Source of the DNA: a virus
Taxonomy: Duplodnaviria > Caudoviricetes
IMG/VR virus record: IMGVR_UViG_3300037424_000434
Span: 1 to 64,000 of that record
Length of the DNA stretch: 64,000 bases
Direction: 5' to 3' (one strand)
The notes beneath the pieces are model-generated. The model was not told the DNA's origin, ran no database searches, and saw nothing but the letters and a program-made list of their open reading frames with translations. The position numbers were made by a program, and so were the translations under genes. Numbering within the stretch: the stretch's first letter is position 1; every line of letters begins with the position of its first letter. This document shows positions 711-60,269 of this stretch, piece by piece.

Positions 711-1295
711 ATGATTGATCATATTGCAGAAAAATATATAAAAGAGGCTTCGTTGGCCCGAATATGGAGTCATATCGAGGGTGGTAGACCCTTTGGTATG
801 ATTACAGCTTTTAGAGGGAGCTATACGAAAAGAGATAACTTGTCTCGTAACAAACAGATGGAGTCAGCAATCAGGGCCGCAGGGCTTGGATTCTTCCGAA
901 TGGAAGGGCATTATGTGGAAAATTATGGGAAAGAGAACGCGCAAGACGTTCAAGAGCAATCATTTTTTGTCATAGGTAACAAGGGAGAAGAGGATACTTT
1001 CAAGTTGTTTTTGAAGACTCTGGGCACGAAGTATGACCAAGATTCTGTTTTTTATTTTGACCCAAAGACAGCCAAGGGATATTTAATAGGAACCAACTCA
1101 ACAGGATATCCCGGAAAGAACAAAGAAATTAGTGTTGGAAAATGGCATCCATCAAAAGCGGGGGAGTTTTATTCTAAAATGAAAAACTCTAAATTCGTGT
1201 TTGAGGATATACAAACGCCGCCAACGATATTATCATTGGTCAATGACTCCACCCTGAGAAGCAATTGGTGGACCCATCTAAAAGAGGAAAATTGA
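711..1295 (+). CDS. phage protein with capsid-targeting-like N-terminus (KYIKE/ASLARIW family)
   Basis: 194-aa ORF; CATAAATA late-promoter-like site upstream; EASLxRI start resembles conserved T4-like phage hypotheticals. Confidence 0.7.
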   Translation: MIDHIAEKYIKEASLARIWSHIEGGRPFGMITAFRGSYTKRDNLSRNKQMESAIRAAGLGFFRMEGHYVENYGKENAQDVQEQSFFVIGNKGEEDTFKLFLKTLGTKYDQDSVFYFDPKTAKGYLIGTNSTGYPGKNKEISVGKWHPSKAGEFYSKMKNSKFVFEDIQTPPTILSLVNDSTLRSNWWTHLKEEN

Positions 1296-1456
1296 TGCGA
1301 GAAACTATACAAAAATATTTGGATAAAAAGGACAAAAAGAGGGTCAACCCTTTCAGTCGGGTTCGTAAACCAACAGCACCCCCATCCAAGGCTATGGGCG
1401 ACAAATCCAAGTACGACAGAACAACCAAACACAAAAATAACATTGAAGTGGAATAA
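1265..1456 (+). CDS. small basic hypothetical protein
   Basis: ORF fills the gap between 711-1295 and HU; true start may be 1295. Confidence 0.5.
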   Translation: MVDPSKRGKLMRETIQKYLDKKDKKRVNPFSRVRKPTAPPSKAMGDKSKYDRTTKHKNNIEVE

Positions 1457-1467
1457 GGAGATTTGAA

Positions 1468-1740
1468 ATGAACAAAGCAGAACTTGTTGACTACGTAGCA
1501 GAGTCTACCGGTATTTTTAAAAAAGATGCCAGAGGTATTGTGGATGCAGTTTTAATAGGAATCAAAAATGGATTGATGTGGGATGGCAAGGTTACCTTGG
1601 CCGGATTTGGCAATTTCCAGACAGTATCAAGAGCCGCACGTAAAGGCCGAAACCCTAAAACAGGTGTGTCGGTTAATATTCGAGCAAAGAAAGTTCCAAC
1701 ATTTAGACCATCAGAGCAGCTAAAAGATGCTGTAGACTGA
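1468..1740 (+). CDS. hup: HU/IHF-family DNA-binding protein
   Basis: MNKAELVD...GFGNF...ARKGRNPKTG...PTFRPS..LKDAV signature; AAGGAG RBS. Confidence 0.95.
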   Translation: MNKAELVDYVAESTGIFKKDARGIVDAVLIGIKNGLMWDGKVTLAGFGNFQTVSRAARKGRNPKTGVSVNIRAKKVPTFRPSEQLKDAVD

Positions 1741-1750
1741 AATAACACCA

Positions 1751-1780
1751 AAAGGAGCGTTTACATATCGCTCCTTTTTT
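1751..1780 (+). terminator. intrinsic terminator after HU
   Basis: AAAAGGAGCG-tttacatat-CGCTCCTTTTT. Confidence 0.85.
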
Positions 1781-1821
1781 GTTATCCTACCTTATAACAT
1801 TAATCGAAAGGACCAACTCAA

Positions 1822-2097
1822 GTGAGTGTATTTATCCAATCAAAATATGTTGTTTTGAGACAACATGACAGCAGATTCGGTGAGTCGGAAAACATTTACG
1901 TGTTCCCTGACAACGTGATTCATGCTGATATTGTTAGAGACATGCGTCCTAATGGCTGTGAATGCATAGGTGCGGGGTTTGTTGTCCGTGGACTAGACGG
2001 CGAACATTACTGCAATGGCCGATCTGACTCATTGGAGCTTGAATCAAGACCCGAAGACACTGTGTTGCTGAAATTGTTGCTGGGGGAAAACCACTAA
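1822..2097 (+). CDS. hypothetical protein
   Basis: 91-aa ORF, GTG start with AAGGA RBS. Confidence 0.65.
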   Translation: MSVFIQSKYVVLRQHDSRFGESENIYVFPDNVIHADIVRDMRPNGCECIGAGFVVRGLDGEHYCNGRSDSLELESRPEDTVLLKLLLGENH

Positions 2098-2098
2098 A

Positions 2099-2464
2099 AT
2101 GGATTCCAATTTAAATTGTCCTCACTGTGGGCATGATGAGTATATGATGTATGACAGTGACTATAGATATCATAGTCGTTCCGATGTGGTGCAGTGTGGT
2201 AAATGTATGAAATATTATTGGATTTCATATACAGCAACAAGTATCCAAAAAATCAACTTAAAGCCCATAAAAGAAGATTCGGATTATACAAAGACATTAG
2301 ACAATTGTCCTGTTTGTGGCGAGGCTGTATACGAAGTTGGTCCGGATCGTTTCTTTAATTACATGAAGTTCGGACTTAAACCTAGAATTTGTGGAAACGT
2401 TACTCTTTTTCGCGGAGAACCAATACGAGAAAGTGAATGTAATTACATCATAGAAACACTATAA
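2099..2464 (+). CDS. zinc-ribbon hypothetical protein
   Basis: CPHC, CGKC and CPVC motifs. Confidence 0.65.
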   Translation: MDSNLNCPHCGHDEYMMYDSDYRYHSRSDVVQCGKCMKYYWISYTATSIQKINLKPIKEDSDYTKTLDNCPVCGEAVYEVGPDRFFNYMKFGLKPRICGNVTLFRGEPIRESECNYIIETL

Positions 2465-58011: not shown

Positions 58012-58012
58012 T

Positions 58013-58378
58013 ATGAGGTTTGCCCAATATTTGACAGAAGAGATGAGATAGGAAACAAAGAAATATGATGGGGATTTTCCGTGGAAAAGTGATGTATATC
58101 CCGATTTGATCATTAAAGTATGGAATGAATCCAAAATTATTGCATTAATTTATGCAACAAAACTTTCAACTACAGGTATTCAGGTTGAATATGCCGTAAT
58201 ACTTGATGAAAAGATGAGAGGAAAGGGTGTCTATACAGAAATCATATCTCATTTAAACAAACAATATGAGATTGTATCGGACGAAGATAGCAATAACTCA
58301 GCAAAAGAAATATATAAAAAACTGGGAGCAGATTACCAACGAGGTAGATATGTTCTTAAAAGAGGTACAGTGAAATGA
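58013..58378 (+). pseudogene. GNAT-like ORF with an in-frame TAG at codon 13 (58049-58051)
   Basis: MRFAQYLTEEMR*ETKKY...EKMRGKGVYTEII...SAKEIYKKLG; the track reports only the part from 58106. Confidence 0.7.
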
Positions 58379-58653
58379 GATTAGAAAAACTTATAAATGA
58401 GGGGCTGTTTAACAACAAGAAAAGACAGGCTCTCATTGAATCTATTCCCGAAATCAGAGAATTAGAATTCACCAAGCATCAACATCAAACCTTTGAACTG
58501 TGTCCATCGTGGATCGAACGACTTGAACAAAAGGGAATAAACGAAACCTTGTTTAAAAAGAGACAACAATTGGTTGCAACTATTCACAGGAAAATAGATG
58601 AGTCTGATCTAACAGAAAAAGACAAAGAGAACTTGAAAAAGAGGTATTCATGA
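58375..58653 (+). CDS. small protein (MRLEKLINE)
   Basis: GAGG RBS. Confidence 0.65.
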   Translation: MRLEKLINEGLFNNKKRQALIESIPEIRELEFTKHQHQTFELCPSWIERLEQKGINETLFKKRQQLVATIHRKIDESDLTEKDKENLKKRYS

Positions 58654-58913
58654 AATTACGGAAATATTTAACTGAAGACAAAGAATTTGCACAATACTTG
58701 TTCGGTCAACTAGATTCCAGAGCCAATGATCTTAAAAGAGGTGTATCCAAAGGATCAATGCTTGCCGCAGAATTTGCGGATATGACGAAAAGTGATAAAT
58801 TAAAGTTTTTTAATGAAAAAGTTATACCCTTGTACCGTAAACACAGATCACCAGAGAAATGGTCGGAAGAATTGCATTTATTTATACGAAACGTTTTTGG
58901 GGAATTGTCATGA
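58650..58913 (+). CDS. small protein (MKLRKYLTE)
   Basis: GAGG RBS, ATGA overlap. Confidence 0.7.
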   Translation: MKLRKYLTEDKEFAQYLFGQLDSRANDLKRGVSKGSMLAAEFADMTKSDKLKFFNEKVIPLYRKHRSPEKWSEELHLFIRNVFGELS

Positions 58914-59410
58914 AATTTCAACGTTACCTACAAGAAGAATATGTAGATACTGTTGTATATAAACAATATCAATCAGAATTATTCGTCAATCCATCCCGGA
59001 GTGAGTTGACGGATTTAAAAGACGCTTCTCCCGGTGGATATCGGTTTGTGGTTGACACCAAATACAAAAAAATCTATATGGTTTCAAGTGAAATTTTACA
59101 TGAGGATCTGTTTGAAATAAAACCCAATTTATTGCCAAACTTCGATTTTGCCGATTATTACACCAAAGGATTGAATACTGACAGGGTTTTTACTGGAAGT
59201 GGGGAGTGGGGCAAAAAAATTATATCTGATTCATGGAGTATTCATGGGGATATACAACGATACGCAGGCAATGATAAAACTGTAAAAAAGATGACAAAAC
59301 TCTATAATACTGATATGACATGGATTAACCGATACATACCCCAAAAAGACATTAAGGAAATAATAGACAAGCTAATAAAAAGGATTGAGAGTTTTCCCAA
59401 AAAATACTGA
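58910..59410 (+). CDS. paralog of 56830-57288 (MKFQRYLQE)
   Basis: ATGA overlap; aligned motifs. Confidence 0.75.
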   Translation: MKFQRYLQEEYVDTVVYKQYQSELFVNPSRSELTDLKDASPGGYRFVVDTKYKKIYMVSSEILHEDLFEIKPNLLPNFDFADYYTKGLNTDRVFTGSGEWGKKIISDSWSIHGDIQRYAGNDKTVKKMTKLYNTDMTWINRYIPQKDIKEIIDKLIKRIESFPKKY

Positions 59411-59631
59411 AATAAAGTATTGACACCCATTCTATTTTGTTCTATGCTGTATTTGTGTTTAGACCCGAACTATAAAGGTTATGGATCATGCCTCTTGTTG
59501 AAATAATATGTTGTGATTGTCAATGTCATTTGGGCTGGCTGGTCGATACGGGCCATGACAGCATGTCTTTTTGTGACGAATGCGTAGAAGAAGACGAAAC
59601 CATTCAGGATGAAGAGGAAAGATAAGGAAAG

Positions 59632-59925
59632 ATGGTAAACTATACAGACTACCATTATAGACCCACTCGACCAGATGAAAAATATACTGTATTCATGATG
59701 TATGACCAACATGGCCACAAAACAGAATATTATGCAGTGAAAGAATGTACCAGTCCACCGCTCAAACCGCTATTACTAGCACATTTATGTGTCATGGTCA
59801 CATATGATCACGAAAAGGAGACACATATACTTATAAAAAACCGAATGAGTGTTAGAGTGCCCAATATTGTGTACCACAGAAAACCCGAACAACATAACCT
59901 ACCCGAAGAATTGTTCATTATATAA
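59632..59925 (+). CDS. hypothetical protein ending NLPEELFII
   Basis: AAGGA RBS; shared C-terminal motif. Confidence 0.65.
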   Translation: MVNYTDYHYRPTRPDEKYTVFMMYDQHGHKTEYYAVKECTSPPLKPLLLAHLCVMVTYDHEKETHILIKNRMSVRVPNIVYHRKPEQHNLPEELFII

Positions 59926-60041
59926 AATTGATAAATACTCCCGAATGGCTATGTTCGGGAGTATTTTGACTTTAAGGAAAATACCCAATCAATAAATAAA
60001 CAATTGTTCAATATTTTGACAATATAAAAAGGAGAGATACG

Positions 60042-60269
60042 ATGACAGATATTAATGAAATCACAAACAAATACCTTGGAGAAGCACTCTCGGGTGACCA
60101 AAAATCCATGCTAAAGGATCAAGATGTTATCCTTGACGCTATTATGGACATGACAGACAAATCCGAAATCAAAAAAATTAGTCAAATGATTAAAGACTTC
60201 AAATCCAAATATCCCGGCCATGGTGCTGACCTAACCAAGCTATTGGACAAAGAGGCGAGAGGTCTGTGA
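60042..60269 (+). CDS. small protein (MTDINEITNKYLGE)
   Basis: AAGGAG RBS. Confidence 0.7.
   Translation: MTDINEITNKYLGEALSGDQKSMLKDQDVILDAIMDMTDKSEIKKISQMIKDFKSKYPGHGADLTKLLDKEARGL

Follow-up and report, generated by a model that had tools for sequence, protein, structure and literature searches.

Short N-terminal leaders resembling T4 capsid-targeting peptides on numerous proteins of an uncultured T4-like phage

Results and discussion

A common N-terminal leader on unrelated proteins

The stretch analysed here, hereafter the window, corresponds to the first 64 kb of the 235,765-bp record of one uncultured T4-like virus (IMG/VR record IMGVR_UViG_3300037424_000434). Roughly 20 genes in the window encode proteins that begin with a short leader ending in Glu, and these leaders probably act as capsid-targeting propeptides of the T4 type. 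The genome has 39% GC and 27 tRNAs. Its DNA polymerase shares ~27-28% identity with gp43 of T4-like cyanophages, and a megablast search with the polymerase gene found no near relative among cultured phages. Genome-wide statistics given below are based on our own 430 gene calls for the complete record.

The leaders occur in two forms. Class A comprises exactly nine residues, M-[RKQ]-[FLY]-x-x-[YFHL]-[LI]-x-E, and the longer form (class B) comprises 12 to 14 residues that read …(I/V)xxKY(L/I)xE (…NKYLxE) or MDI(L/V)xxIxxx(L/I)xE. The class A pattern is found at Met1 of 14 proteins, compared with 0.055 expected from the nine occurrences of the Met-less pattern at 70,545 internal positions, which is an excess of ~250-fold over the internal rate. 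A looser, Glu-anchored motif with the Glu at residues 8 to 16 matches 36 proteins when 9 are expected, and therefore about 27 leaders in the genome are predicted to be genuine, of which about 20 are in the window. This Glu is residue 9 in 15 proteins and residue 13 or 14 in another 10, compared with about one expected per position. When the class A prefix is present, Glu occupies residue 9 in 14 of 15 N-termini of this genome and in 36 of 43 from the related loci described below, and four of the seven exceptions in the related loci carry Glu at residue 10. All class A leaders end in [LI]-x-E, and F/L/Y at position -6 from the Glu and Y/F/H/L at position -3 are found in 15 of 15.

An earlier note on this DNA had also counted about 20 tagged genes in the window. 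All 17 of the N-termini that it listed translate as it states, those at 51826, 52768 and 53599 from the minus strand and the others from the plus strand. Leaders that it did not list are those at 13054, 14017 and 28165, which are of the MDI[LV]xxIxxx[LI]xE type, and possibly that at 51813.

Paralogy was rejected as the source of the common N-termini, as an all-against-all BLASTP comparison of the bodies that follow the Glu revealed one five-member family and nothing else related. The leader might also be a feature of the nucleic acid, such as a translation-initiation enhancer or a recombination cassette, or might reflect chance or composition, with no function in the protein. Initiation is favoured by AAA or AGA as the second codon and by AT-rich codons near the start, and the 27-nucleotide leaders average 64% nucleotide identity. 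Moreover, DNA coding for the capsid-targeting sequence (CTS) of T4 may assist the exchange of cassettes. However, the Leu/Ile at position 7 is encoded by six different codons, which argues for selection on the peptide and not on RNA, and the Tyr/Phe and the Glu are also kept through synonymous change. The motif holds, too, across phages whose GC content ranges from 31 to 42%. Because of the Met1 excess, the codon variety and the fixed distance of the Glu, we treat an origin in nucleic acid or chance as excluded for practical purposes, and give it scarcely any credence.

The mature parts of the tagged proteins are more basic than the proteome (median isoelectric point 8.6 versus 6.1, p = 0.008). 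In AlphaFold2 (AF2) models of the five-member family and of a tagged S-adenosylmethionine (SAM) lyase, the leader is modelled with low confidence as a short helix that lies apart from the well-folded body.

Tagged genes of the window

Leader genes between 711 and 28356 are on the plus strand. The first of them (711..1295), preceded by CATAAATA at 668, encodes the SAM lyase, whose 12-residue leader is MIDHIAEKYIKE. The product matches Pfam PF23780 at 54.5 bits (cut-off 28), and Foldseek assigns it to the SAM-lyase fold with probability 1.00 to 6ZM9, 7OCK and 8BB1. Residues 1-13, which correspond to the leader, have a predicted local distance difference test (pLDDT) score below 50.

A cluster of leader genes at 10.4-15.9 kb begins with those for a 59-amino-acid protein (10441..10620; leader MKIDEVVNKYLTE, with TATAAATA at 10334) and a 130-amino-acid protein (10620..11012) with the class A leader MRFQHYIYE. 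A 236-amino-acid protein (11956..12666) starts with MTKLSNFLKE if a GTG start is used. This GTG has GGAG upstream of it, and an ATG located 27 nucleotides upstream, at 11929, would place FLKE at residues 16-19. An Atlas search with the product gave no match. The ambiguous start of this gene is overlapped by a homing-endonuclease-like gene at 11087-11959, also within the cluster, which combines a CapR/treble-clef zinc finger with REase_MTES_1575. Further along are genes for proteins of 110 (12671..13003; MGQGIAYYLSE), 94 (13054..13338; MDILDKINGMINE), 126 (14017..14397; MDILNRIDIVLNE) and 43 (14394..14525; MKSINETIDKYLIE) amino acids, followed by a 136-amino-acid protein (14717..15127) with the class A leader MRFHRHLNE. 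The adjacent gene (15141..15878) encodes a putative RelA/SpoT-like protein of 245 amino acids, whose weak leader, …HLSSLDE with the Glu at residue 16, is a poor fit to the pattern. A gene for a 63-amino-acid protein is located separately (28165..28356; leader MDIVEKIGVLLGE, with AATAAATA at 28127).

Four leader genes on the minus strand occupy 51593-53599. They encode proteins of 77 (51593..51826; leader MDINEIANKYLIE), 79 (51813..52052; possible leader MSKTLRECLLGE, a weaker match), 238 (52052..52768; class A leader MRFIKYLIE) and 251 (52844..53599; class A leader MQFNRYITE) amino acids. The 238-amino-acid protein, for which there is a ParB-like lead, has TATAAATA at 52793-52800 on the minus strand. 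An Atlas search with the 251-amino-acid product returned low scores only.

The remaining leader genes of the window are on the plus strand. A 152-amino-acid protein (56830..57288) has the class A leader MRLQRYLQE, with GATAAATA at 56784. The gene at 58013..58378 encodes the class A leader MRFAQYLTE and, in the same frame, a GNAT-like body that continues to 58378, and an in-frame TAG at 58049-58051 (codon 13) separates the two. The 27 phage tRNAs include no suppressor or other tRNA that reads TAG. This locus could be a pseudogene or contain a sequencing error, or translation could start at a downstream TTG (58106). It is followed by genes for proteins of 92 (58375..58653; MRLEKLINE), 87 (58650..58913; MKLRKYLTE) and 166 (58910..59410; MKFQRYLQE) amino acids, all with class A leaders, and the last is a paralog of the 56830 product. 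A 75-amino-acid protein (60042..60269) has the leader MTDINEITNKYLGE, with GATAAATA at 59930 and AATAAATA at 59991.

The products of 56830 and 58910 belong to the sole expanded family among the tagged proteins, whose ~150-amino-acid members have three further copies in the genome (L003:1136-1594, L003:2666-3118 and L004:1787-2200). Its members share a conserved NPS…RF…K…H…W pattern. The AF2 model has a pLDDT of 88.9, with residues 2-8 of the leader as the low-confidence helix. In the PDB, Foldseek found nothing similar to this model at E ≤ 0.001, and VIA-align reached a Z of 3.5 at best.

Outside the window, small genes are arranged back to back at genome positions 93460-95484 (L004:9460-11484); at least three of them encode MDI(L/I)xxI… leaders, and a fourth encodes an MDII… N-terminus.

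A T4-type head module

A protease that could process such leaders is encoded at genome positions 104577-106289 (L005:577-2289). It is a Peptidase_S77 prohead protease of the T4 gp21 type, scores above the Pfam cut-off and adjoins genes for the portal (102740-104317), the scaffold, which matches phrog_237, and a gp23-family capsid protein (G000:C1:107232-108545; 353 bits). PF03420 matches the protease at 47.5 and 27.2 bits within one 573-amino-acid frame that is split by an intein. The intein (~104799-105875, ~359 residues) contains a LAGLIDADG-like segment, is inserted directly after the GHPP motif, and has GN|C rather than HN|C at its C-terminal junction. Without residues 75-433, the protease has 211 residues, compared with 212 in T4 gp21.

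The phage's own protease begins MKKGYLITE and its scaffold MGIKQILE, which can be compared with MNEPQLLIE of T4 gp21 and MLKEQLIAE of T4 gp22. The capsid protein carries ILAE at residue 18, which resembles the LLE-GEG of T4. A PF07068 search of the genome detected the major capsid gene only, and no gp24-type vertex paralog. Co-folding of residues 1-40 of the class A family with the scaffold gave a score of 0.00 and a partner pLDDT of ~33, a result that has no bearing either way.

Late-promoter-like sites

The earlier note had reported promoter-like sites at 9398, 52793-52800 (minus strand), 56784 and 59930, and all are present. Genome-wide, the heptamer ATAAATA occurs at most 120 nucleotides upstream of 13 of 31 leader genes and of 47 of 399 other genes (odds ratio 5.4, p = 6e-5), so the proposed association of leaders with a promoter-like motif is borne out. 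When counted by operon, the heptamer is found for 23 of 31 leader genes and 114 of 285 others. NATAAATA sites also precede portal, tail and fibre genes.

Related loci and exchange of leaders

When IMG/VR was searched with the family alignment, eight loci from further uncultured phages (31-42% GC) were recovered. The number of class A leaders per locus ranges from one to eight, the bodies that they precede are varied, and some of these genes lie between the terminase gene and other structural genes. In two cases a leader of one form corresponds to a leader of another. The 51593 product, with leader MDINEIANKYLIE, has an ortholog (L010:11199) in which the class A leader MRLLQYLNE precedes a homologous body, and a protein encoded at genome position 68536 (MKFNEYLTE) matches L009:5626, which begins MIDDIVNKFIINE. 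Homology starts directly after the Glu in both pairs, and the two leader forms thus appear interchangeable. Orthologs of the 52052..52768 product (L010:10489 and L014:11240) retain a leader, and that of the 52844..53599 product (L010:8432) starts with MQFSTYLNE.

Homologs of the SAM lyase carry class B, class A (MRFKQYLDE…) or near-T4 (MKTYKEYLAE) leaders, all of which converge on one Glu ahead of the first conserved block. They include gp48 of Paraglaciecola phage GD1, which starts with MKTFSEFLGE; gp89 of the same phage starts with MKTYNQFILE. The S-CREM2 homolog begins MKDFDSFLEE, and the depositor's annotation of S-CREM2 gp6 as "virion protein" provides a lead only. In the open literature we found no virion proteome data covering the cultured homologs (PANV1/GD1 and phiM9/phiM12). 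A Lak megaphage outside the T4-like phages (L025; Prevotella phage Lak-C1, MK250029.1 199472-200637) encodes a SAM-lyase homolog that also carries an N-terminal extension; this homolog begins MNNFDDAIKKKLLEE, and its conserved block is located further in.

Resemblance to capsid-targeting sequences

Packaging requires no more than the first ten residues of T4 internal protein IPIII, of which 4 and 7 are important for targeting and 8 and 10 for processing by gp21, an enzyme that cuts after L/I-x-E (PMC9026906). gp21 removes the CTS of IPI, IPII and IPIII as well as the short propeptides carried by gp24 and Alt (PMC9026906, PMC3012670, PMC5694885). In T4 DNA we read MKTYQEFIAE for IPII and IPIII, MAKINELLRE for gp24 and FLTE|A for the gp23 site. 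Residues 4, 7, 8 and 10 of IPIII are positions -6, -3, -2 and 0 relative to the Glu, which are the positions conserved in class A, and class A therefore corresponds to the T4 CTS minus one N-terminal residue.

We consider it probable that the common N-termini are T4-type capsid-targeting propeptides that are cleaved after the Glu, as the earlier note had proposed. The length and position of the leader, the spacing of its conserved residues, the S77 protease, the unrelated bodies, the modularity, the near-T4 CTSs on homologous bodies elsewhere and the enrichment of late-promoter-like sites all agree with that proposal. Its list of cargo proteins proved only partly right. The further steps are drawn by analogy with T4. 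A short amphipathic peptide, with a hydrophobic residue at -6 or -7, an aromatic one at -3, Leu/Ile at -2 and Glu at 0, would dock its protein onto the scaffolding core during prohead assembly. The gp21-family protease would then cut after the Glu and free the mature protein inside the head, where it would stay with the DNA, and at least part of the set would enter the host with it.

Several points weigh against this proposal or limit its reach. All that lies downstream of the pattern itself is argued by analogy, and late timing is read from a promoter-like heptamer: the genome has 131 NATAAATA sites, of which 70 are upstream of genes, and the heptamer also occurs elsewhere. L/I-x-E is absent from the capsid protein at the site aligned to FLTE|A of T4, and therefore the specificity of the protease may differ in detail; the Glu nearest to the aligned position is in SMNE (residue 53). 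About nine of the 36 matches to the generalised motif are expected by chance, and individual weak members (15141, 51813, 11956 and 12671) may thus be false. Efficient translation could account in part for the Lys/Arg at residue 2, and small proteins of the tagged set might be core components that are degraded, in the manner of T4 gp67 and gp68, and not ejected effectors.

Resemblance to T4 extends from the ~10-residue tag on unrelated proteins and the gp21-family protease to the head genes, the late-promoter-like sites of the TATAAATA type and the near-identical T4 CTSs borne by homologous bodies in other phages. In contrast to T4, the main form is nine amino acids long, one residue shorter, and a second form has 12-14 residues; about 30 genes appear to be tagged, as judged from sequence, whereas T4 has about four to five cargo proteins; and the predicted cargo includes a SAM lyase. 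The giant phages phiKZ, 201phi2-1 and SPN3US have a protease (gp175/gp245) that cleaves after S/A-x-E (PMC5694885, PMC9026906). They are similar in that a gp21-related protease cuts many proteins of the head interior after Glu, and ejection of a large set has been proposed for them. However, their propeptides are mostly longer than 100 residues, the P3 residue is Ser/Ala and not Leu/Ile, and their core genes are not T4-like.

The CTS has already been suggested as a general route by which T4-like phages load varied proteins (PMC9026906, PMC3012670). Since the concept was established in T4, the gain is in breadth and cargo and not in principle: what is new is the scale of tagging, the existence of two leader forms that appear interchangeable, the predicted cargo and the contrast with another tag system, described below. 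If the tags function as in T4, presence in the virion and likely delivery to the host could be read from the first ten residues of a protein, and dozens of orphan genes would become candidate anti-defence factors for the first minute of infection. The T4 rule, in which -6 and -3 serve targeting and -2 and 0 serve processing, would then extend across very distant T4-like lineages and could be useful for protein-packaging tools in phages of hosts other than coli.

Predicted cargo

The SAM lyase, which was not named in the earlier note, is a solid assignment by profile and fold, and is the sole firm enzyme among the tagged proteins. The 711..1295 product has the same fold and belongs to the same Pfam family as the SAM lyases of T3 and Svi3-3 (8BB1, 7OCK, 6ZM9). 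The T3 enzyme is made early after infection. Unlike it, the SAM lyase considered here has a capsid-type leader and is encoded behind a late-promoter-like site, which implies that it may be delivered ready-made. Such delivery would lower SAM before SAM-dependent defences act and, if true, would to our knowledge be the first known case of a SAM lyase delivered as a protein and not expressed early.

Apart from RimK, which is treated below, the other identities proposed in the earlier note are weak leads or did not hold. Homologs of the 15141 product at 38-41% identity (tblastn) are annotated as RelA/SpoT, and it matches phrog_37685 (E 2e-39), but its score against Pfam RelA_SpoT (PF04607) is 23.8 bits, below the cut-off of 27. 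The homolog in phiM12 starts with MSLLKEFRE, and that in Paraglaciecola phage GD1 (gp92) with MIGFSEYLEE. The GNAT-like protein at 58013 does have a class A leader, but it scores 19.2 bits against Acetyltransf_7 (PF13508; cut-off 27), and its frame is interrupted by the TAG. The ParB-like identity of the 52052..52768 product comes solely from an Atlas lead. An ADP-ribosyltransferase, which the earlier note had listed as possible cargo, found no support: PF03496 (Alt-like) has no match in the genome, and Pfam and PHROG scans of the tagged proteins gave no such signal. Apart from the SAM lyase, the predicted cargo consists mostly of small, rather basic orphan proteins.

An arsenal of effectors is therefore less secure than capsid targeting, as the small orphans could be core or DNA-associated proteins. 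The tagged proteins may enter the prohead and be processed there, yet be mostly structural, scaffolding-core or DNA-condensing proteins, like T4 gp67, gp68 and the bulk internal proteins, that are degraded or inert instead of being injected as effectors. The one firm enzyme, the basic mature parts and the size of most tagged proteins (43-170 residues, with no family match) are consistent with this alternative, as is the location of several tagged genes (93460-95484) beside head and neck genes; the products of these tagged genes are candidates for prohead-core proteins analogous to gp67 and gp68. However, the SAM lyase and the RelA/SpoT-like and ParB-like proteins have no obvious structural role, and the high turnover and exchange of leader classes in relatives resemble the hypervariable anti-defence internal proteins of T4 (PMC3012670). 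We consider this alternative unlikely as an account of the set as a whole.

A broader proposal, which builds on capsid targeting and which we advance tentatively, is that an N-terminal code in two dialects allows a whole clade of uncultured T4-like jumbo phages to load ~25-30 different proteins per genome into the head. The loaded proteins would all enter along with the DNA and would include ready-made enzymes, with a SAM lyase, a nucleotidyltransferase of the RelA/SpoT type and a protein resembling ParB among them, and a second, mutually exclusive C-terminal address tag would mark interleaved genes that are not late. If this were so, the injected proteome would be several-fold larger than that of T4 and predictable from sequence.

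A second, C-terminal tag and a RimK-type gene

At 54-82 kb, a region that is in the window from 54552, leader genes alternate with small genes whose products end in an acidic …(D/E)(E/D)LF(I/T/V)L. The N-terminal leader and the C-terminal tail never occur on the same protein in this region, and ATAAATA precedes five of nine leader genes but none of 12 C-tail genes.

The presence of this C-terminal tag indicates that systems that read tags, other than the capsid, exist in this genome, and the N-terminal leader might similarly be read by a partner other than the capsid. Such a partner could be a modifying enzyme, with the leader acting like that of a ribosomally synthesized and post-translationally modified peptide (RiPP) for an ATP-grasp/RimK enzyme or a radical-SAM-type maturase, or it could be a chaperone or a system that responds to a degradation or timing signal. 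A candidate is encoded nearby: a gene for a 493-amino-acid protein with a RimK-type ATP-grasp and a Zn_protease-like domain (50088..51569, minus strand) is directly downstream of, and on the same strand as, the four leader genes from 53599 to 51593. RimK itself is unlikely to be the reader, as it is present in only one of the eight related loci with leaders. More generally, leader genes are spread over no fewer than seven distinct clusters, and some of these are found among structural genes. A body of 150-300 residues that has an enzyme fold does not resemble a RiPP precursor. The last residues of the motif match the gp21 cleavage consensus, and in other phages a genuine T4-type CTS is present on homologous bodies. 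A reader outside the capsid therefore seems distinctly improbable, and capsid targeting remains the reading that we prefer.

The earlier note had included RimK among the cargo. The domain assignment is sound (Pfam RimK, PF08443, 146.6 bits), but the N-terminus, MTLKEEFEQLRLLKE, is not a convincing leader, and its LLKE, with the Glu at residue 15, matches the loosest pattern only. In related locus L010, the RimK protein is 75% identical. The RimK/Zn_protease-like gene is followed, within 48829-51569 on the minus strand of the window, by a gene for a 419-amino-acid FG-GAP propeller with seven repeats, and these two genes have the highest coding scores among our gene calls in the window except for the DNA polymerase gene.

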